Shown: piece by piece, positions 6,947 to 16,934 of the stretch
Numbering within the stretch: position 1 is the stretch's first letter
Layout of the letters: each line of letters begins with the position of its first letter
Origin: a candidate division FCPU426 bacterium
GTDB lineage: Bacteria; Oederibacteriota; Muellerivitia; Muellerivitales; Muellerivitaceae
Direction: 5' to 3'
NCBI GenBank assembly: GCA_963771075.1
Contig: CAVYSE010000003.1
Location: forward strand, 160,001-224,000
Length of the DNA: 64,000 nucleotides
Translations under genes and position numbers: made by a program
The notes under the pieces: generated by a model
The model's database searches: none
The model's input: only the letters and a program-made list of their open reading frames with translations
What the model was told of the DNA's origin: nothing

Positions 6947-6972
6947 GTTCACGATAGGTCCCCGTCGTGGAC
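6947..6972. repeat. 26-bp site R2: GTTCACGATAGGTCCCCGTCGTGGAC
   Basis: Direct match to consensus with two mismatches. Confidence 0.9.
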
Positions 6973-7002
6973 AAAAACTACAAGCCGAATACGGGTGGTC
7001 CG

Positions 7003-7440
7003 CTACCTTTTTAATTCCTCAAGTGGAAGAAGTCGCGAGTCTTCCAAGGCGGCCGTTCGGTGTCCAAGACCTTTCAAATAACCTTCGTTGGACGCAAAAG
7101 AAAGAAATGAATCCACGCTCTGCTGGCGGATAAGCGCAACCATATCCCACCGCTCGGTTTCTGGCCCAATTAGAAATTTACCACCTTTGCCGAGGAACAA
7201 TATATCTCCCCCGGTCTCACGCAAGAATGGCAAGGTATGGTCGATATAGCGTCGAAAGGCATCCGCGCCGCTGATGGGTGTTGGCGGACGAAGATCCGGT
7301 GTCGCTGAATAGTCGGCGGTTTCACGGAATCGCAGTAAGTTCAACATCACGATTTCCCCGAGGATCCTCCGCATGACGAAATCCCGTCCGGCTTCCTGCG
7401 TCACATCAAGATAAGGTTTCGTTCCATTTTTATTTGTCAT
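7003..7440 (-). CDS. DUF1330-family protein
   Basis: VMLNLLRFR..A.Y..LIGP..WD...HRTAALEDSRL. Confidence 0.8.
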   Translation of the reverse strand: MTNKNGTKPYLDVTQEAGRDFVMRRILGEIVMLNLLRFRETADYSATPDLRPPTPISGADAFRRYIDHTLPFLRETGGDILFLGKGGKFLIGPETERWDMVALIRQQSVDSFLSFASNEGYLKGLGHRTAALEDSRLLPLEELKR

Positions 7441-7500
7441 TCAAGCTTGTCCTTTTTTTAGACAGTCATTTCCAACCTAGCAGTTCAGTCTCCAGATATT

Positions 7501-7526
7501 GTCCAATGCGGGTCCCCATCGTGGAC
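7501..7526. repeat. 26-bp site R3: GTCCAATGCGGGTCCCCATCGTGGAC
   Basis: Direct match to consensus. Confidence 0.9.
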
Positions 7527-7573
7527 AGGTAATCGAATCAAATCTCGCTTTCGAGTTTCCAGCAACAAACAGT

Positions 7574-8104
7574 TTAGCGGTTCGGGAATTTTCCTTGGAT
7601 GGTTTTGATCGCCAGAAACAGCGTTTGGGGTTTGTTTGCCAACGGATGGAAACCGTATTTTTGATAAAACCGGACAGCTTGATCATCCTTGGCGTCCACT
7701 ACAACTCCGTAAATTCCAATTTCGTTTGATAAACGTTCAGCTCTCTGTAAAGCGTCTATCAAGAGCGCAATGCCAATTCCACGGCCTTGGTGCCTTTTAT
7801 CCACCGCCAATCTTCCGACCCTAATGGCAGGAGCGGGATAACGGGGGAGGCCTTTTGAATGGGGGGGCGGCAGCATTTGGGAGTCGATTTCTGAAGACAC
7901 GGCCGTGTAAAAACCCAAAACCTTCCCGCTCTCGCTTTTCATCTGCGCAACAAATGTTTTGCCGATGTTTCGTTCATGGTTTTGCCGGGCATATTTTCGC
8001 AAATATTCATTTAGCTCTAATACCCCGCAATCAAAGGAATCAAAATCCAAATGGCAGGTTATGGCTTGAATCTCGAATGCTAAAGGATTCCCTGCGGGGT
8101 TCAA
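7574..8104 (-). CDS. GNAT acetyltransferase toxin (TacT/AtaT-like)
   Basis: FDCG..LN.YL, RLAVDKRHQGRGIG acetyl-CoA motif, FYQKYGF; coupled to DUF1778. Confidence 0.9.
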   Translation of the reverse strand: MNPAGNPLAFEIQAITCHLDFDSFDCGVLELNEYLRKYARQNHERNIGKTFVAQMKSESGKVLGFYTAVSSEIDSQMLPPPHSKGLPRYPAPAIRVGRLAVDKRHQGRGIGIALLIDALQRAERLSNEIGIYGVVVDAKDDQAVRFYQKYGFHPLANKPQTLFLAIKTIQGKFPNR

Positions 8105-8376
8105 GGGCGGCTATATTTCTTGATCGCCGCTGACAAAGCCTTATTGGGACGGGGCGGATTTTCCAGTACTTTCATGAAAGAATTCCACTCATTTTCGGAA
8201 AGAGTGATGCGGCTTTGGGTCGTAAGCCCCTCCTGGGCGGCCCTTAAGGAATTTGAAAGCATGAACGCACTGAGGCTAAGGCCAAAAATCGAGGCGGCCT
8301 TTTCAAGCATGGCCTTGTCTTTCGGGCGGATGCGAATTTCAATTCGTTGTTCCCTGGATTGTGTCGCCGTTGGCAT
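8101..8376 (-). CDS. DUF1778 antitoxin (TacA/AtaR-like)
   Basis: RIEIR..KAA...SLSAF...ITLS...F...LENPPRPN. Confidence 0.9.
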   Translation of the reverse strand: MPTATQSREQRIEIRIRPKDKAMLEKAASIFGLSLSAFMLSNSLRAAQEGLTTQSRITLSENEWNSFMKVLENPPRPNKALSAAIKKYSRP

Positions 8377-8451
8377 AAAGACCTCCTAATTTCTATAAAA
8401 GAAGCATACCTCATCGTACGGATGATGTCCACACACAAGACAAAAATGGTC

Positions 8452-8463
8452 GTCCACGACGGG
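8452..8463. repeat. Left arm of split site R4 (GTCCACGACGGG)
   Basis: Joins 9973-9986 to give a perfect 26-bp site once 8464-9972 is removed. Confidence 0.85.
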
Positions 8464-9462
8464 TAGTTCTGTTCTTTTCTTCATCTTCGGCGTGAACTTC
8501 ACTACCCATTTCCCCCGGCGGTTTATCTCCATCCGGAAGTCAAACCCCAGAAACCCAAAGCTTTCGCCTTTCGTTAAGTCCACTGTCCTCGTTTTGTCCG
8601 TGTTGATTTTCAGGTCAAGTTTAACCAATTCCTCAAGTAGCCTCTGGTAGACCGCCTTCACAAGCCCTTCCCCCTGTGGGTTTCCATCCACGAGGATCAC
8701 CATATCGTCGGCAAACCTCGCATATTCGACAGGGGTGTACATCCCTTGCCGGGTCGCTTCCTTCGCCTTTTCCAGCATCTTGTCCACCTCGTTGAGGTAG
8801 AGATTCGCCAGAAGTGGGGAAACAACTCCGCCTTGGGGAACTCCTCTTTTGCCGCTGGCTTTCAGGATTAGCTTCAGCAATCTCATCACCGTTTTATCCT
8901 CAATCCTCTGCGCTACCTTCTTCAACAGCAGGTCATGCCTTACCGTATCGAAGTACGCCTTCAGATCAAGGTCGATGACTCGGGTTTTCCCCCCGACAAT
9001 TGCTTCGGCTACCCTGTTCACCGCCGCATGAGCAGTCCGCTTGGGCCGGTACCCATAAGACCCGTCTTGAAAATCAGCTTCGAAAATTGGTTCCAGGATG
9101 AGCTTCATCGCTCCCTGGACAACCCTGTCCCGAATGTTGGGTATCCCAAGAGTTCTGACCTTCCCATCTCCCTTGGGTATCTCCTTCTTCCGGTTCCGGG
9201 CCGGTCTATACGTGCCTTGGACTAGTTCACGCTGGATGCTTTCAAGAAACGGCTCTATCCCTGCTTCTTCAATGGCCTCAAATGTCACCCCGTCTATTCC
9301 AGGGGCTCCATTGTTTGACTTCGCCATCTGGTAAGCCTGTTGGAGCGCTTCCATCTTGCAAACATGCGTGTAAAGTCCCCAGAAACGCCAGTTCTTCTCA
9401 GCCTTCGCTTTGACGTATATCTCTCGTCTCAGGTCTTGCAGACTGATGGACGTCTTTTTCAT
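8464..9462 (-). pseudogene. ltrA: Truncated group II intron reverse transcriptase
   Basis: GAPGIDG, RTLGIP..DRVVQ, PQGGVVSPLLANLYL, FADD, FLGFDF; reads into the repeat arm (PVVD) and stops at 8386. Confidence 0.9.
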
Positions 9463-9972
9463 ACCGTCCCTGCCTCCCACTTTTGCCAAGAGATTTCACA
9501 ACAGCAGGGTTACTTCGCTCCACGGGAATTACCCCGCTTCTTAGCTACTTTTAACCCGTCCTACTCCCTCTTGCCTTCGACCGCTTTCCCGCATCGGGTT
9601 ATACGGCCTACCTTTTTCCAAGTATTTCTACCTGGGGCAAGGAGGGTCTCTCCAGTTGCTTGGTATGTCCTTGTCATCATGCCGTGGCTAGCACCCCGCC
9701 AGTGTGTTCCAGCGCATTGGCCATCTGGCCGCTGTTCCATGTTGCCTTCATCCCACGACGGAGGATTCGGCCACTGGGGCTATTGTTTTCGGGGCCACCT
9801 ATGCCTTCACTTTCGTTACGGCCTGACGACTCGCTCACCATCCCGAAGATGGCTTTGTCGATGGGCTTCAGGCATTAAGTTTCCCGCTTGCCTGCCATCC
9901 TAGCTAATGGGTTTTGGCTATTACCCATGCAAGTCTACCTCTTGCTGAACACACCTGCCTTTTCTGGACGCA
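8464..9972 (-). mobile_element. Group II intron, 3'-truncated (5' RNA domains plus RT; no maturase end, no domains V/VI)
   Basis: Starts (A)TGCGTCCAG on the minus strand, ~500 nt of non-coding leader, RT ORF cut off after KKRTEL. Confidence 0.85.
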
Positions 9973-9986
9973 TCCCCGTCGTGGAC
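9973..9986. repeat. Core plus right arm of split site R4 (TCCCCGTCGTGGAC)
   Basis: Complementary to the left arm at 8452-8463. Confidence 0.85.
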
Positions 9987-9990
9987 AAGC

Positions 9991-10534
9991 TTAACCAGAA
10001 CTCGATGAATATTTTTTAAGAATCGTTAATTCTTCAGGTGTAAAAAAATCAGGCCATTTCTTTTTAAATGGCAAAACAAACCCCTTATAGAACCATTTAC
10101 GATCAATTCGGGTTTTTAGCGCATCGGGCAATTCATGTATGGCATCCATATAATCTGTAACTAGACTTAGATTTGTGTTTTTGATTAAAGAAGAAGTCCT
10201 GCTAAATACATGGATGAGTGTGTCATGGTCTAATTTCGTTATGCTTCGAGGCCATGGGTAGTAATAAAGAATTTCCGTTAGTTCTTCCTGGTCTAAAGTT
10301 TGGATTTTTAAAACCCGGCAAAGTATTTTTTCCCCATGTCTCTTGTCCTGCTACACGAGATACTCGGTTATTTCCGTCGGCGAAACCATCATTCGCTTTA
10401 ATCTCTTCCAAAGCTCTCACAATCGCATTTAAATATTTAGTCTCTTCTGGCTTCGCCCTGGCCTGAACAGCCAATCGGTGCAATAGATCCAGAAAACAAA
10501 CAGAAATCATTTTTTGTTCAACTGGAGCACTCAT
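9991..10534 (-). CDS. AT-rich hypothetical protein, probably frameshifted (ORF 10223-10534 continues in other frames to a stop at ~9991)
   Basis: AGGAG RBS before ATG 10534; open frames continue downstream (…ITKLDHDTLIHVF…, …FTPEELTILKKYSSSSG*). Confidence 0.45.
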
Positions 10535-10575
10535 TAAATAATTCTCCTAAAAGAACCTCTTTATCGTTTTTCCTT

Positions 10576-10601
10576 GTCCAATCCGGGTCCCCGTCGTGGA
10601 C
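10576..10601. repeat. 26-bp site R5: GTCCAATCCGGGTCCCCGTCGTGGAC
   Basis: Direct match; followed by AAGCTTAACC, as R4 is. Confidence 0.9.
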
Positions 10602-10613
10602 AAGCTTAACCGC

Positions 10614-10966
10614 TTATTCACGTACCCTCACCCGTCCTTTTTCAATAATCCACAACCGTTTATCTACCTGTTCTTTGGACAACAGATCCAATACGGGGCG
10701 GAAAAGTTCGACCATGGTTGGTTTGTCCTGGCGGTCAGACCGGATCACCATGATTCCAGGATATTTTTCCGGCGGGTAAGCCCGGATATCCGAAAAATCA
10801 AGGTCAGAGGTAATGAAGGCGCGGTTTTCGGCCAAGCAAACGACGGCTAAATTCGTATCAGGATGGCCGGTTAATTCTTGGTCTTTTACCGTAAGGGCGT
10901 CATGACCAGCTTGGATTAAAAGATGTTTGATCTCGAAAGGCAGGTTTTCATCGATTTTGAACTTCA

Positions 10967-10967
<1 letters not shown>
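10614..10967 (-). CDS. DUF5615 PIN-like toxin (VapC45-like)
   Basis: MKFKIDENLP..GHD..ITSDLDF. Confidence 0.85.
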
Positions 10968-11287
<320 letters not shown>

Positions 11288-11335
11288 TTAAACAACCCCT
11301 AAAGGCTAAAACCGGCTCTAATAGCACTATTACCT

Positions 11336-13314
11336 GCAGAGTAGAGCGCTGGCGCGTATGCCTTAGAGTACGGTGGCGAATCCAACCCTTTCGGATTGGG
11401 CCTCAGTCCGGCTCTCATCACCACGTTTCCAGCGCCCCCTCATCAAACCGTACGTGACCTTTTCGATCATACGGCTTTCCGACAACCTTTCAACCGGCAG
11501 CATTCAAGGCAAAAGCTGGAATCCAGTTCAAACCAAGGCGTTTCACTTCCTCGATCGACCATGTTCGTCCTTCCCAGGCGTACTTATGCCTCCGAAACAA
11601 AGTCAGCCTTTCGAGTACGTAAAATTGAAGCTTGGAAAAGTATGGCTGGCTGTCCCCAATTCGGAAATAGTTGGCCCACCCCCTTAACACCGGGTTCAAA
11701 GCCTTCGCTACATCCTCCATTGGAGATAAGAGCCGCTCTCGGCCCGCCGTCATCTGCTTCACTTTCTCGGCGATTTTCTTCATGGCCTTCCGGCTCGGCC
11801 AGCTCAGGCAACAGGTCTTACCCAATCCTACCACCGGCATACCTACTCGAAAGTGGAACCCAAGGAAGTCAAACCCTTCCTTCCCAGGCCCCATTTCCAC
11901 CAGCCGTGTCTTTTCGGGGTGCAGTTCAAGCCCTAGTCGTCCCATCAATTCCTTGATGACTTCCAGGCTCTTTTCCGCATGGGCTTGGCTTCCGCACAAC
12001 ACCACAAAATCGTCGGCGTAGCGCACCAGCCTACCCAGTTTCCTGTGCCTCTTATTCCAAACCTTGTCCAGCAAGTGAAGGTAAACATTGGATAACAGCG
12101 GTGAGATCACCCCGCCTTGCGGTGTCCCTCGGAGAGTCGGCGTAAGCCTTCCTTCCTCAAACACACCCGCCTTCAGCCACCCTCGGATCAGTTTCAAAAC
12201 CTTCCGGTCACTGATCCTCTGGCGCACCAGCACCATCAGTTTGTCGTGGTCGATGGAATCGAAATACTTCCGAATATCTCCATCCACCACCCATCTGTAC
12301 CCGCCATTGATCCACTTCTTGATCTCCCGGTGGGCCTGCTGGGCTCCGCGTTTTGGCCGAAATCCAAACGAGCCTTCCAGAAAGTCCGCCTCAAAGATGG
12401 GTTCCACCACCTTCCGGCAAGCCGCTTGAACTACCCGATCCCGAATTACCGGGATTCCCAACGGTCTCTTGCTTCCATCAGGCTTGGGTATTTCCACTCG
12501 TCTCACAGGTTTAGGCAGATACTTCCCAGCTTTGAGTTCTTCCTGGATGCCCTTCAGGAATGGAATAATTCCCACCTTCTCTTCGATCCATTCCAGCGTT
12601 TCCCCGTCCACTCCTCCTTGGCCTTTATTAGCCTTCACCTGTTTCCATGCCGCTGTCAGGACATCCCATCGGGTCATCCTGTCATGCAGTACATGAAATC
12701 TCCGGCTTGGGCTCCTCTTGGCCGCTCGGTATAGCGCCCTTTGAAGGGTTCGCGCCTTGTCTTCGGAGTTGTTGGCCCTTTGGGGCATGCTCCAGCGCCT
12801 CCCTTTTGAAGGTTGCTTGGTTGAAGCAGGGGTCCTTCCCTCCAGGTGGTTTTGTTGTCCACCCTTCACAGGTATTGTGACCCCCTCCGACTTCCTCCCG
12901 CCCTTGCCCCTTTTCGGTTTTAGCCTTATAGCGGCAAGTCTTTTGGCGGGTAGGATCTCCCAGGTTGCTTGCAAAGCCTTTCCAGCATTCCGTTCCCCAT
13001 ACGCCGGAGGACTTTCCCCGCTTGCTCCAGATTCTTCAGCGGGATCGTGGCCTTCGCCGGTAGACACGCGGCTCGGCATCCTCTTGCACCTTTCGGTGTC
13101 CCATTCACGACGCGGCAGGATTCACTTGATGTTGCGGACTGCTAGATTGTTCCCTCACTGAATGAGGTTTATGACCCCGTTTCGGGCAGAACCTCTCGGT
13201 CCTACGCCGGGGGCTGACTTCCAGGCTCTCTGGCGATTACCTGGTCAGGATTTGGGCTGGCCCTCTTCGGCCTACTCCCTCACCTGCTGGCTCTACAAAC
13301 CTTCGCTGGCACGA
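11336..13314 (-). mobile_element. Complete group II intron
   Basis: Domain V AAGCCGTATGATCGAAAAGGTCACGTACGGTTT (~11446-11478), domain VI ending CCAGCGCTCTACTCTGC, intact RT; ends uncertain by a few nt. Confidence 0.9.
11490..12788 (-). CDS. ltrA: Group II intron RT/maturase without endonuclease domain
   Basis: RPLGIP..DRVVQ, PQGGVISPLLSNVYL, YADD, domain X LNPVLRGWANYF. Confidence 0.95.
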   Translation of the reverse strand: MPQRANNSEDKARTLQRALYRAAKRSPSRRFHVLHDRMTRWDVLTAAWKQVKANKGQGGVDGETLEWIEEKVGIIPFLKGIQEELKAGKYLPKPVRRVEIPKPDGSKRPLGIPVIRDRVVQAACRKVVEPIFEADFLEGSFGFRPKRGAQQAHREIKKWINGGYRWVVDGDIRKYFDSIDHDKLMVLVRQRISDRKVLKLIRGWLKAGVFEEGRLTPTLRGTPQGGVISPLLSNVYLHLLDKVWNKRHRKLGRLVRYADDFVVLCGSQAHAEKSLEVIKELMGRLGLELHPEKTRLVEMGPGKEGFDFLGFHFRVGMPVVGLGKTCCLSWPSRKAMKKIAEKVKQMTAGRERLLSPMEDVAKALNPVLRGWANYFRIGDSQPYFSKLQFYVLERLTLFRRHKYAWEGRTWSIEEVKRLGLNWIPAFALNAAG

Positions 13315-13315
13315 T

Positions 13316-13341
13316 GTCCACGAAGGGTCCCCGTTGTGGAC
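13316..13341. repeat. 26-bp site R6: GTCCACGAAGGGTCCCCGTTGTGGAC
   Basis: Direct match to consensus. Confidence 0.9.
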
Positions 13342-13386
13342 GGCAAATTCACTTCAAAATAGTAATAGTGGCCTGACACCTTTTTC

Positions 13387-13842
13387 TTAGTCTAAAATCT
13401 TTCGCATTTGCCTGCAATCTTCCGCAATCCCGGTAAGCTCATCCGCATCCCAGTCATAAAATTCCCAGCCCAATTTTTTGTAGAATCCCAAAGCCTCAGG
13501 CGCGGCATTCACATATAAAGTCTTAATCCCAAAGTCGCGCGCATACTTTTCCACCAAAGAAGATAATTGGCGTCCGTGACCACTCCTTTGGTAATCATCT
13601 GATATGGCAACCAGTCGTACCGCGCCATAGCCATCTCTAAAATCATCTAAGCGGGTAGTACCAACAGGGATGTTATTGAGCAACAATAGAAGCGGGTGAT
13701 GATTCGGCAGATATTCATCCTCATGCATTTCATCGTAGTCTTGTTTTCCACGATTTTCCCACAGCACTTTATGGCGAATGTCGTGATATGCCTGCCAATG
13801 GTTCAAAGCGGTAACTTTTATGAGTTCATAGTTTTTTTGCAT
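13387..13842 (-). CDS. GNAT N-acetyltransferase
   Basis: VRLVAIS..YQRSGHG, NA..A.GFYKKLGW. Confidence 0.85.
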   Translation of the reverse strand: MQKNYELIKVTALNHWQAYHDIRHKVLWENRGKQDYDEMHEDEYLPNHHPLLLLLNNIPVGTTRLDDFRDGYGAVRLVAISDDYQRSGHGRQLSSLVEKYARDFGIKTLYVNAAPEALGFYKKLGWEFYDWDADELTGIAEDCRQMRKILD

Positions 13843-13915
13843 TTTCGAACCTAACAAACCGTAATTCAAAAGTATTTTTAAAAAAGGGACAGACCAACAT
13901 TAACCATTTTTCCCT

Positions 13916-13941
13916 GTCCAATGCGGCTCCCCATCGTGGAC
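13916..13941. repeat. 26-bp site R7: GTCCAATGCGGCTCCCCATCGTGGAC
   Basis: One difference from R3. Confidence 0.9.
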
Positions 13942-13953
13942 AGGTCCATCCTG

Positions 13954-14376
13954 TTATTGCCCACTCTTGACTACTTTGGTGATCTTAACAGAGTCGATGC
14001 AGACAAATTGCATGACCCCTTTTTGATAGGGCGTACAGGGGCATACCGTGAAGATTCCATAAACCTCAGCGCCCAAATCATCCCTGAAAATCGCATCTAA
14101 ATTTTCTGGAGTGGGAGCTTCACCACGCACACCCAATACCCTCTGGGTTCCAATCATCCAAATCTTCATTGATGTAAGATTGGCGCCAAAACGTGCCCGT
14201 CCCCTAAAAGAAAAGCATTTTCCAACAACCCTGGGGTCGCTATGACAGGGGCCTTTGAATTCCATGTAGGAGTCTACTGTCGGGGTGGCAGTGGCACTAT
14301 CAGCACTGACGGGGTGTTTCAACCCCACGCACAAAAGAAGAAGAGTTATAGAAATAATATTTATTTTTTTCATCAC
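13954..14376 (-). CDS. Secreted Cys-containing hypothetical protein
   Basis: N-terminal signal peptide; C..CF.FRGR..CP.TP...MQFVCI. Confidence 0.7.
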   Translation of the reverse strand: MMKKINIISITLLLLCVGLKHPVSADSATATPTVDSYMEFKGPCHSDPRVVGKCFSFRGRARFGANLTSMKIWMIGTQRVLGVRGEAPTPENLDAIFRDDLGAEVYGIFTVCPCTPYQKGVMQFVCIDSVKITKVVKSGQ

Positions 14377-14399
14377 GTCTCACTTCTCCAATTTTGTCT

Positions 14400-14425
14400 G
14401 TCCACGATGGGTCCCCATCGTGGAC
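14400..14425. repeat. 26-bp site R8 (perfect arms): GTCCACGATGGGTCCCCATCGTGGAC
   Basis: 12-bp perfect inverted arms around TC. Confidence 0.95.
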
Positions 14426-14430
14426 AAGGA

Positions 14431-14787
14431 TTAAGCCCTGCGAACCCGAACCTTTTGATTTGTGGCTACGACATTGCAACCAGCCCAAGTGGAGACATCT
14501 TCACTTTCAAAAATCTCCACAATGCGTTTAAACAGGTCTTCGCGGCTAGGATCAATAAGTCGGATGAGTAGAACGCCATGGTGGGTTCCCGGGGAATGGC
14601 TTCGTATGTCGGAGAAATACAAATCCTGTGATACTAGAAAGCGCTTGGCTTCCTGGGCGGCCTTCCAAACGCTTGGATCGTCCTTGCCCTTCAGGCTCTC
14701 TTGGAGGACGGTATCCACGTCATGGCCGAGCCGGGTAAGGGGTTCACTTAAATCGGCGGGAAGGTTCTCATCCAGCTTTATTTTCAT
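14431..14787 (-). CDS. DUF5615 PIN-like toxin
   Basis: MKIKLDENLP..GHDVDTV; paralog of 10614-10967. Confidence 0.85.
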   Translation of the reverse strand: MKIKLDENLPADLSEPLTRLGHDVDTVLQESLKGKDDPSVWKAAQEAKRFLVSQDLYFSDIRSHSPGTHHGVLLIRLIDPSREDLFKRIVEIFESEDVSTWAGCNVVATNQKVRVRRA

Positions 14788-14796
14788 GTGGTGGAA

Positions 14797-15033
14797 TTAG
14801 ACGGTTGGGACGGCGGGAACGGGCAGGTCTTCCTCAGCAGAAGATGCGGCATAAGAAATGACGGAGGTTACCGCCTCACGTGTTAACGAGGGAAAAGATT
14901 TAAGCACTTGATCCATGCTGTCACCGGCGGCAAGGCTGGCTAAAACAGTCCTAAGAGTTACCCTCGTGCCTTTAATGACGGGTTGGCCGTTACAGATTTT
15001 TGGGTCTCTAACGATAAAGTCCGTGTGATTCAT
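14797..15033 (-). CDS. DUF433 antitoxin
   Basis: DPKICNGQPVIKGTRVT...FPSLT. Confidence 0.9.
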   Translation of the reverse strand: MNHTDFIVRDPKICNGQPVIKGTRVTLRTVLASLAAGDSMDQVLKSFPSLTREAVTSVISYAASSAEEDLPVPAVPTV

Positions 15034-15159
15034 AACCCCTCCTCATCAACTGAAGTTATTTTAGGCATGATGCCATGGGGGAACAAGTGGCTGTGTAGTA
15101 AGTGGCCCTTATGCAATATAACCAGCCCAAAAGGAGGTATATTTACAATCAATTTAGGT

Positions 15160-15185
15160 GTCCACGATGGGTCCCCATCGTGGAC
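15160..15185. repeat. 26-bp site R9 (identical to R8)
   Basis: GTCCACGATGGGTCCCCATCGTGGAC. Confidence 0.95.
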
Positions 15186-15230: not shown

Positions 15231-16934
15231 TCAACGGATCACTAGGATCTTCAGGATTTTTGACGACTGGACCGGGCCGGTGACCTGGACCCTCAAGTAA
15301 TAAAGCCCGTTGGCCACGGGTGAGGCCCAAGAGTCTTTCAAATTCCAAGACAAAATCGTATTAGTGCCGGAGACGGATTGGGGATGATCCAGGATTTTGC
15401 GGTAAGCCGTCGTGAAAACGCTCCATTCGATCATGGAATCGGCGGGAAACCACAGGGGAATAAGAACCGGCCCGTTACCGCTGGGGTTGGGATAGGGGTT
15501 GCCGACCATCACGCTCGTAACGACCGGGATTGCCGTGGCGGTGGAAGTGTTAGCTGGCCCCGGCGTGTCCGTGGGTGTACCCAATGGCGTAGCCGTCGAC
15601 GTGTTCGTGGGGCTCGGCGTGGCGGTGGGTGTTCCCGTGGCACTATTGGAAGCCGTTGGCGTCGGACTGTTCGTGGCCGTTTGAGTCGGCGTTTCCGTGG
15701 AGGTAGGAGTACCCGTATCTATGGAAGAAACGGTATAGACCGGAGTGGAAGTCCAGCTGGCGGTGAGGGACGCCGTCCCAGTGGGTGTCATAGAACCTGT
15801 CGGAGTCTGGGAGGTTGTCGCGCTTGGCGTCATCGTACCCGTGGGGGTAAAGGATAAGGTGGAAGTCGATGTGAAGGAGGCGGTGTTGGAAGGCGTGGTG
15901 GGCAGGGTCGCGGCCCAGGTGGGAGTGGGGGTGACCGTGAAGGAAGAAGTTGGCGTTAGGGTGAGGGTCGGGCTGGGTGTCGCGGTGGAGGTAGCGGTCG
16001 GGGTCGAGGTCAGGGTGGGCGAGGGGGTGGGGGTATCCGGTTCGTAGGCCCGCACGTAATCCACCAGCATGGTCTGGGGAAAGGATGTGGTGGCGTCCGG
16101 TTTGCCGGGCCAGTTCCCGCCCACGGCCATGTTCAACAGGAAAAAGAAGGTGTTGTTGAATTCGTAGGTGCCCCCGGCGGAGGCGGCACCGGCGGAAGTC
16201 TGGGTCTCATAAAGCGTATCGTCCACGTAAAACTGCACCTGGTTGGCCTGCCAAAGGATCCCGAAGGTGTGGTAGGCGTTGTGGTAAAGCGCCCCGGCCG
16301 GAAGCGTGTAGATGGCGCTGGGGTTCCAGTTGGGCGCGTGCAGGGAGCCGTGGTTGTTCCCCTGGTCCGCGGGGTTGCCGTTGTAGGTGGCGGGGTTGCC
16401 GATGTTCTCCATGATGTCCATCTCGCCGCAGTTCGGCCAGGCGGTGCCGGAGTTGATGCTGGTGCCCAGCATCCAAAAGGCCGGCCAGATGCCGTCGCCA
16501 TAGGGCATTTGGATTCGCGCCTCCATGTAGCCGTACTGGAAGGTGACGCCCTGGAAACCCGACGCGTTCGACAAGAGGCGCGCGGAAGTGTAACGCCCCA
16601 CCGTGCCGTAGTTGGCGTTGCCGGGAGTGGTATCAATGGCGATGATCGCGAGGGATTTGCCGTCGGTGGCGTTGGGATCGGAGACGATTTGGGCGTTGGC
16701 GGTGCTGTTGGTGTAGTTTTCCAGCTCGTTGTTGCCCCAGCCCGAATCGCCCGTGTTGTAGGTCCAGTTGGAAGAATTGGGGGCGCTTCCCACGGTGCCG
16801 TTGAATTCATCGCTCCAAACCTGGCTGTAACCGGCGGGCGCGGCTGAGCCAAGGCCGGCCATGGCCCAAAAGGCCAGGACCGGTGGAAGCAACAATAACC
16901 TGAGGGAAAATTGATTTTCGGAAGGTTGTTTCAA
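15231..16934 (-). CDS. Secreted GH16 beta-1,3-glucanase with Thr/Pro-rich linker and C-terminal sorting-like domain
   Basis: WSDEF, WPAFWM, catalytic EMDIME, NMAVGGNWPG; TPT repeats; PYPNP...NGLYY..KILVIR. Confidence 0.9.
   Translation of the reverse strand: MKQPSENQFSLRLLLLPPVLAFWAMAGLGSAAPAGYSQVWSDEFNGTVGSAPNSSNWTYNTGDSGWGNNELENYTNSTANAQIVSDPNATDGKSLAIIAIDTTPGNANYGTVGRYTSARLLSNASGFQGVTFQYGYMEARIQMPYGDGIWPAFWMLGTSINSGTAWPNCGEMDIMENIGNPATYNGNPADQGNNHGSLHAPNWNPSAIYTLPAGALYHNAYHTFGILWQANQVQFYVDDTLYETQTSAGAASAGGTYEFNNTFFFLLNMAVGGNWPGKPDATTSFPQTMLVDYVRAYEPDTPTPSPTLTSTPTATSTATPSPTLTLTPTSSFTVTPTPTWAATLPTTPSNTASFTSTSTLSFTPTGTMTPSATTSQTPTGSMTPTGTASLTASWTSTPVYTVSSIDTGTPTSTETPTQTATNSPTPTASNSATGTPTATPSPTNTSTATPLGTPTDTPGPANTSTATAIPVVTSVMVGNPYPNPSGNGPVLIPLWFPADSMIEWSVFTTAYRKILDHPQSVSGTNTILSWNLKDSWASPVANGLYYLRVQVTGPVQSSKILKILVIR

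Follow-up and report, generated by a model that had tools for sequence, protein, structure and literature searches.

A 3'-truncated group II intron at the centre of a cassette-array site is probably not a real feature

Bacterial group II introns are known as 3'-truncated remnants, among them FRE652 of Sinorhizobium, a real RmInt1-like remnant that has also lost its first G (PMC4181065). Where subpopulations differ at a locus, a long-read metagenome contig may contain the sequence of each of them, complete or in part (10.1101/2025.04.22.649783), and in one family of polishers alignments are split at simple 4-mers that lie within solid 10-mers (10.1101/048413). Here we analysed a group II intron fragment in a 64,000-nucleotide stretch of a bacterial genome (hereafter the window). 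The fragment has the shape of the common 3'-truncated remnants, and we conclude that the truncated insertion at the centre of its site is probably not a real feature.

The intron fragment and its cassette array

The fragment lies within a cassette array (6947..15185) built on 26-bp palindromic sites that consist of a 12-bp arm, a TC core and a second 12-bp arm, GTCCACGAYGGG-TC-CCCRTCGTGGAC. The cassettes of the array encode BrnT/BrnA, TacA with GNAT, DUF433/DUF5615 and a second GNAT, and the cassette adjoining the fragment carries a TacA-like antitoxin and a GNAT toxin on the minus strand (7574..8376). At up to 5 left-arm mismatches, 84 sites were found in the genome, with the core and the right arm nearly invariant and the middle of the left arm variable; an exact 12-bp arm is expected by chance about once per genome. 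Half-sites combining TC and the right arm with at most 6/12 left-arm matches numbered 11 in array context, including that of the window, among 21 such matches, some of which are shifted or duplicated copies.

Serine recombinases cut DNA to leave 2-nt 3'-OH overhangs (PMC11607074), and the 12-2-12 shape of the site fits such an enzyme. The sole PF00239 match in the genome, located at C8:80038-80478 and about 370 bp from a site, is our candidate for the recombinase acting on these sites. Other recombinase types considered as the array enzyme gave 8 matches (tyrosine recombinase) and 20 matches (Y1 transposase). No published serine-recombinase cassette-array system of this kind was found in the portions of the literature searched.

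Four places share a repeat that spans the end of the serine recombinase gene and the DNA up to the first site (G000 C8:80318-80878, C6:158408, C8:42242 and C28:107694), which is a candidate array leader. At 12 sites (G000 C3:148695, C5:98249-104260, C11:133981, C26:134361-136854 and others), an extra hairpin of about 37 bp, GCCATGTAGC...GCTACATGGC, lies within the right arm and would be either a longer form of this site or a very small insertion. Two consecutive sites of the window are followed by an identical 10-base stretch, AAGCTTAACC (9987-9996 and 10602-10611), and next to the array (15231-16934, minus strand) lies a GH16 glycoside hydrolase whose tail is long and rich in Thr/Pro. The array also contains a second, complete group II intron (11336..13315, minus strand), which sits at the outer edge of one such site and has 10 full-length RT copies in the genome. 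In the window copy and other G000 copies, ATC (once GTC) stands between the arm GTGGAC and the intron start GTGCC, and A follows the intron end CTCTGC; if the EBS1 of this intron is GUCUAC, the three bases would be a 5' extension of the intron.

The fragment itself is flanked by the left half-site GTCCACGACGGG (8452-8463, plus strand) with a core T at 8464, and by the right half-site TCCCCGTCGTGGAC (9973-9986, plus strand), comprising the TC core and the right arm CCCGTCGTGGAC. Alignment to full-length copies identified the DNA between them (8465-9972, minus strand, 1508 bp) as nt 2-1509 of a 1997-nt group II intron, with 3 substitutions and 0 indels (99.8% identity) relative to the full-length loci L110 and L114. 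A first-pass annotation, made from the letters alone, had described these two half-sites with the 5' part of a group II intron between them, and matches to Rfam RF02003, RVT_1 and TIGR04416 bore this out; its insert length of 1509 bp has to be corrected, as only 8465-9972 is intron. Both T 8464 and T 9973 are non-intron, since full-length copies have G before TGCG and TCTC after AGAACT. The annotation had also held that removing the insert rebuilds a perfect site with no loss or duplication. The two half-sites are indeed there, but one T is duplicated and the intron G1 is missing, so that the fragment reads A-TGCG at the GUGYG 5' end where full-length copies read GTGCG. The core dinucleotide is TC at the right junction and TA at the left. 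Viewed on the intron strand, the left half-site forms the 3' exon and lacks the GGG left by canonical homing, and the 5' exon (9973-9986) has GGA in excess of what canonical homing leaves.

The fragment retains the domain I segment (9811..9947, minus strand; RF02003, 116.8 bits) and the EBS1 hairpin (9750..9766, minus strand), in which EBS1, CGUCGU at 9755-9760, is the complement of ACGACG in the site arm. Codons 1-333 of the 433-codon RT/maturase ORF occupy 8465..9462 (minus strand), and the frame continues beyond the end of the fragment to a stop at 8386. The RVT_1 match covers model positions 1-204 of 205 and TIGR04416 scores 315.9 bits against a cut-off of 300, indicating that RT domains 0-7 are present. 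The ORF is thus cut in codon 333, past the FLGF motif of RT7 and at the start of domain X, rather than in the middle of the RT as had been annotated. Domain X, domain V, domain VI and the AY end, all present in L110 and L114, are missing from the window copy, in agreement with the annotated absence of domains V/VI and of the maturase end (RVT_1 without GIIM). The annotation was likewise right that a fragment lacking domain V cannot home by itself. No second copy of the fragment was found in this assembly, which is 97% complete.

The full-length parent intron and its normal target

The same intron (99.8%) was found at its full length of 1997 nt in public metagenomes (L110 and L114), which allowed the comparison of target sites and EBS pairing that the first-pass annotation had proposed: the full-length copies insert between GTCCACGACG and GG, not at the window position. 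EBS1 pairs 6/6 only at ACGACG, which sets the insertion point there, and 5/6 or 2/6 at the observed junction of the fragment. Among the 37 distinct 5' flanks of the lineage in the loci compared, 27 were canonical, nine lay in other targets and one, that of the window, was shifted; the canonical point was used in 27/27 site junctions other than the window's. The 24 distinct 3' flanks comprised 14 canonical-like flanks, nine in other targets and one ended by a contig edge, and 0/24 started with ACCC. Of 31 genomes of the family, 8 carry the 5' pattern of the lineage. The 26-bp cassette sites are a genuine home of the intron, but its insertion point in them lies 3-4 nt from the junction position in the window.

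Because the window junctions are 3-4 nt off, at the TC core, plain homing followed by deletion fails as an explanation; moreover, the 5' side gained GGA and the 3' side lost GGG, which homing plus one deletion cannot yield together. The annotation had correctly seen that this is not an ordinary homing junction. Its proposal that a full intron homed into the hairpin loop and later lost its 3' part, possibly through CTAC microhomology, is not supported, given the 6/6 pairing only at the canonical point and the location of all 27 other junctions there. The intron reads GAACTTCTC at the break and CCCTAC at its 3' end, so that only 2 nt (CT) are common.

The related loci give no precedent for such a loss. 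The whole ORF and domain V are kept in 76/80 of them, and of the other four, two stop at a contig edge and two retain domain V, leaving internal 3' loss of domain V in 0/80 loci and no hot spot for 3' loss in the intron family. Short or internally deleted derivatives of both intron families, with intact ends and located in sites, were seen at L106, L112 and L115, at loci of G014, G008 and G001, and at G000 C2:57252-58077. At L001, L007, L009 and L022, both intron families occupy one site, the parent's in the arm and the second at the outer edge. Domain V of the full-length L114 has a 5-nt loop, GAAAU. By eye, many distant relatives (L012-L080, 5' flanks) insert directly after domain-V-like hairpins, for example between CACGTACGGTT and GTG, and the site-targeting lineage therefore looks retargeted.

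We examined 8 of 24 matching public runs, all as contigs, with a best share of the stretch in one run of 0.82. In 8/8 runs the contig continues beyond 8465 into letters different from those of the window, and in five of the eight the letters shown are those of the full-length intron. Past 9972, four runs have the canonical G and the site arm. In runs X5 and X6, the 5' flanks open with 28-30 letters that follow sites empty in this assembly, suggesting that insertion varies among close relatives. In runs X2 (presumed to be DNA) and X15 (an RNA run), nt 1997 is joined directly to nt 1 with 489 letters between, which would correspond to an exact circle or a tandem; group II intron circles are known (PMC4770220, PMC3753933). 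Head-to-tail arrangements also occur in loci L086 and L105. Taken with the full-length continuations, these joints indicate that the parent intron is intact and apparently active. Contigs crossing either window junction were found in 0/8 runs, which says nothing on absence since contigs drop rare variants. Contig depth was higher over the intron than over the flanks and, as it sums organisms, was not taken as copy number. Neither the shifted nor the canonical junction pattern was present in viral contigs.

Origin of the truncated copy

Misassembly, which the first-pass annotation had itself named as the case against its reading, is the likeliest origin of the fragment. The likelihoods that we attach to the four readings below are our own judgement. 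We consider it rather probable that the fragment is a consensus chimera, produced by long-read polishing of a mixture of empty-site and whole-intron cells. The assembly is noisy: it contains six fold-back duplications of 2-15 kb with 81-97% identity and many gaps (G000 C10, C17, C18, C22, C24 and C26), which makes findings from those stretches suspect, including the array at the end of C26. Gappy fold-back duplications are typical of noisy long reads. For such a chimera to form, the population would have been mixed at the window site, with some cells bearing the empty site and others the whole intron. Reads from intron copies at other sites would have piled onto the interior and preserved it, and the polishing segment holding a site arm and the last 488 nt of the intron would have been won by empty-site reads.

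The position of the break is close to that expected under this scheme. Such a polisher would also force a cut after 500 bases without a landmark, a figure for which no confirmation was found in the polishing and assembly literature searched. When the rule of solid 10-mers, simple 4-mers and the assumed 500-base cut was applied to the rebuilt filled allele, cuts fell at nt 1511, 1008, 505 and 2 under 120/120 settings in the deposited orientation, and at 490/993/1496/1999 or 500/1003/1506 in the opposite orientation. The observed fragment ends, 1509 and 2, lie at most 2 nt from this grid built on assumed constants, and the junction letters were not reproduced. The cut at nt 2 follows from the intron length and is thus no separate evidence. 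The chance that a random break would lie within 2 nt of the first cut is 0.0025; if all cuts in both orientations are allowed, with a margin of 3 nt, it is 0.03. Among the partial copies inspected in the genome, none was a further repeat with a length of about 503 x k bases.

We also ran a toy polisher of our own writing, from which the actual assembler may differ, with mixes of empty, filled and other-site reads chosen where a hybrid can form. With noise, the 3' part was lost in 384/489 replicates, the break falling at nt 1502-1514 and in 56 cases at 1509; the remaining 105 retained the complete intron. Reads from other sites rescued the interior but mostly stopped before passing the left arm, so that only the 3' segment fell. 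The junction letters behaved differently. Starting from a canonical filled allele, the left end GGGT appeared in 0/384 hybrids, 366 of which ended GGGTCC, and TCC was gained at 0/125 polished right junctions, with 259 right ends left unpolished. When the true allele was already off-register, GGGT appeared in 13/148, 0/136, 9/133 and 10/155 hybrids (0-9%; left-end counts alone were used for these runs), and off-register junctions were found in 0/27 of the other site junctions. To account for the 3-4 nt displacement of the letters, one would have to invoke polishing at a later step, or else a genuine but imprecise 5' junction, with G1 lost and GGGA repeated, beneath an artefactual truncation. 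Polishing into a chimera would explain the position of the break, the lack of decay (3 substitutions only), the absence of a donor and why canonical homing fails; it leaves the last few letters unexplained, hence our restrained preference for it.

The letters that count against a chimera, with both junctions at the TC core and a good fit to a staggered break at TC, lead to a reading that we regard as unlikely, in which the allele is real and the site was patched by reverse transcription. The TC core would have been broken by the candidate serine recombinase or at the hairpin tip, and the break repaired by the intron RNP. EBS1 pairing would hold the RNP 3-4 nt away, a free 3' end would prime on the RNA at nt 1509, and copying would proceed to nt 2 before rejoining to the other half-site; a recombinase cut would leave 2-nt 3'-OH overhangs. 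A single event would yield all the letters: the two ends at the core, GA retained next to one junction and one of two overhang bases next to the other, and the loss of G1. This reading is consistent with the overhangs left by serine recombinases (PMC11607074) and the sole PF00239 match about 370 bp from a site, with the presence of the intron in a metatranscriptome contig (X15), with the shape of FRE652, and with the ability of group II intron RTs and related enzymes to prime from very short homologies and to join breaks (10.1101/2022.03.14.484287). The repair described in the relevant parts of that study is, however, the joining of DNA ends and not the insertion of kilobases of RNA-derived sequence in bacteria. 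The event needed is undescribed, its priming point has no microhomology (the primer T faces an RNA U), the donor copy is absent from this 97%-complete assembly, and the break would fall on the assumed polishing grid by a coincidence of 1 in 35 to 1 in 400 (0.0025-0.03). In the literature searched on intron truncation, RT break repair, assembly errors and serine cut geometry, no intron fragment patched into a recombination site was found. The stricter version, in which the cut was made by the recombinase and an EBS1-docked RNP filled it with cDNA copied from its RNA, is less likely again; the palindrome centre is also the hairpin tip, so that the junction alone would not prove a recombinase cut. 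Capture of the fragment at a core break, one of the two routes that the first-pass annotation had suggested, is a possible reading that accords with the letters (both junctions at the TC core, a 1-nt duplication).

Homing gone wrong and followed by a real 3' loss seems to us a poor prospect as well, and less likely than patching by reverse transcription. Reverse splicing would have occurred 3 nt off, between GGGG and ACCC, or a linear intron RNA would have homed and left an inaccurate 5' junction; in either case the RT would have skipped the final 488 nt, or these would have been deleted afterwards. The +3 register pairs 5/6 with EBS1, second best of nine registers, and gives the observed 3' exon ACCC, and CT is common to the break and the intron 3' end. 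IIE introns splice by hydrolysis in vitro (PMC3753933), and in fly embryos the homing of linear introns produces 5' truncations as well as additional bases that are copies of neighbouring sequence (PMC3280974). The signature of linear-intron homing in the latter source is a precise 3' and an imprecise 5' junction; here the 5' junction fits and the 3' junction is lost. Fragments are common, at 55/135 distinct copies (PMC3522654). The annotation's premise that 3' truncation is unusual is weak, as bacterial group II introns are described as usually decaying by losing their 3' terminus (PMC4181065). This reading nevertheless calls for two or three rare steps, namely the shift, the change of G1 and a loss ending exactly at the exon, and the surveyed loci are against them, with the shift in 0/27 other site 5' junctions and 0/24 distinct 3' flanks, and internal 3' loss of domain V in 0/80 related loci.

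It is very improbable that the recombinase captured intron DNA as a cassette through look-alike sites in the intron. The right junction, with 6/12 left-arm matches, TC and a perfect right arm, resembles other half-site hybrids of the array, and its left arm ranks 144 of 2032 positions. However, the left core is TA instead of TC, and the 3' break, which ranks at 502-1908 of 2032 in the four registers tried, does not qualify as a pseudo-site. Moreover, had the crossover taken place in register at the 5' junction of a normally homed copy, the cut would lie deeper in the intron than nt 2. A serine-recombinase crossover product would keep the core at both junctions and have partner DNA resembling the site; neither was observed. 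A pseudo-site at the break or at the head-to-tail circle junction was also considered and gave no score worth keeping.

Consequences and comparison with described systems

In no case can the junction now serve to map the recombinase cut. If the fragment is a consensus chimera, partial mobile elements in restored targets are possible polishing products in genomes such as this one, of a soil bacterium recovered from a long-read metagenome, and are not to be relied on for the mapping of cut sites. What remains real is that an intron lineage of IIE/IIF type has, across a bacterial family, the arm of a non-attC cassette site as its target, beside a second intron family whose place is the outer edge of that site. 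If the allele were true, it would bear on the first making of gene cassettes and on the cut position of the array recombinase. Were it the product of patching by reverse transcription, it would have caught in nature a cut staggered by 2 nt at the TC core of an undescribed serine-recombinase cassette system. It would also mean that DNA copied from RNA can be placed in a cassette site by a reverse transcriptase, a concrete route to new cassettes.

Our preferred reading, a polishing chimera, resembles the haplotype chimeras of long-read metagenome assemblies, in which part of one subpopulation's sequence is held at a variable locus (10.1101/2025.04.22.649783). The benchmarks treated in that source are PacBio HiFi, whereas the 503-base grid used here comes from the assumed behaviour of one polisher and not from the paper. 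Like the fragment, FRE652 consists of the 5' part of an intron, has lost the 3' terminus and the first G, has intact EBS and lies outside genes (PMC4181065). Unlike the fragment, which is 99.8% like active copies and occurs in one assembly within a nearly restored target, FRE652 is old (89% to RmInt1) and occurs in many strains according to the same source.

The parent intron shares with group IIE/IIF introns a 433-aa ORF ending soon after domain X, a 5-nt domain V loop, an EBS1-defined target and head-to-tail joints (PMC3753933); it differs in that its lineage targets the arm of a cassette site, and its assignment to class E/F is a putative one by features. Assignment to the group IIC-attC introns, which insert between TTGT and T of the attC bottom strand with an EBS1 of 3-4 bp, was considered and rejected in view of the target between GTCCACGACG and GG and the 6-bp EBS1. 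The IIC-attC and IIB/E integron introns nevertheless resemble the parent as mobile introns in a repeated site of a gene-cassette array (PMC7923331). From the IIC-attC introns, as that source describes them, the parent is set apart by its 26-bp palindrome, which is not an attC, by its EBS1 of 6 bp instead of 3-4 bp, and by its orientation in the window, which is that of the cassette genes.
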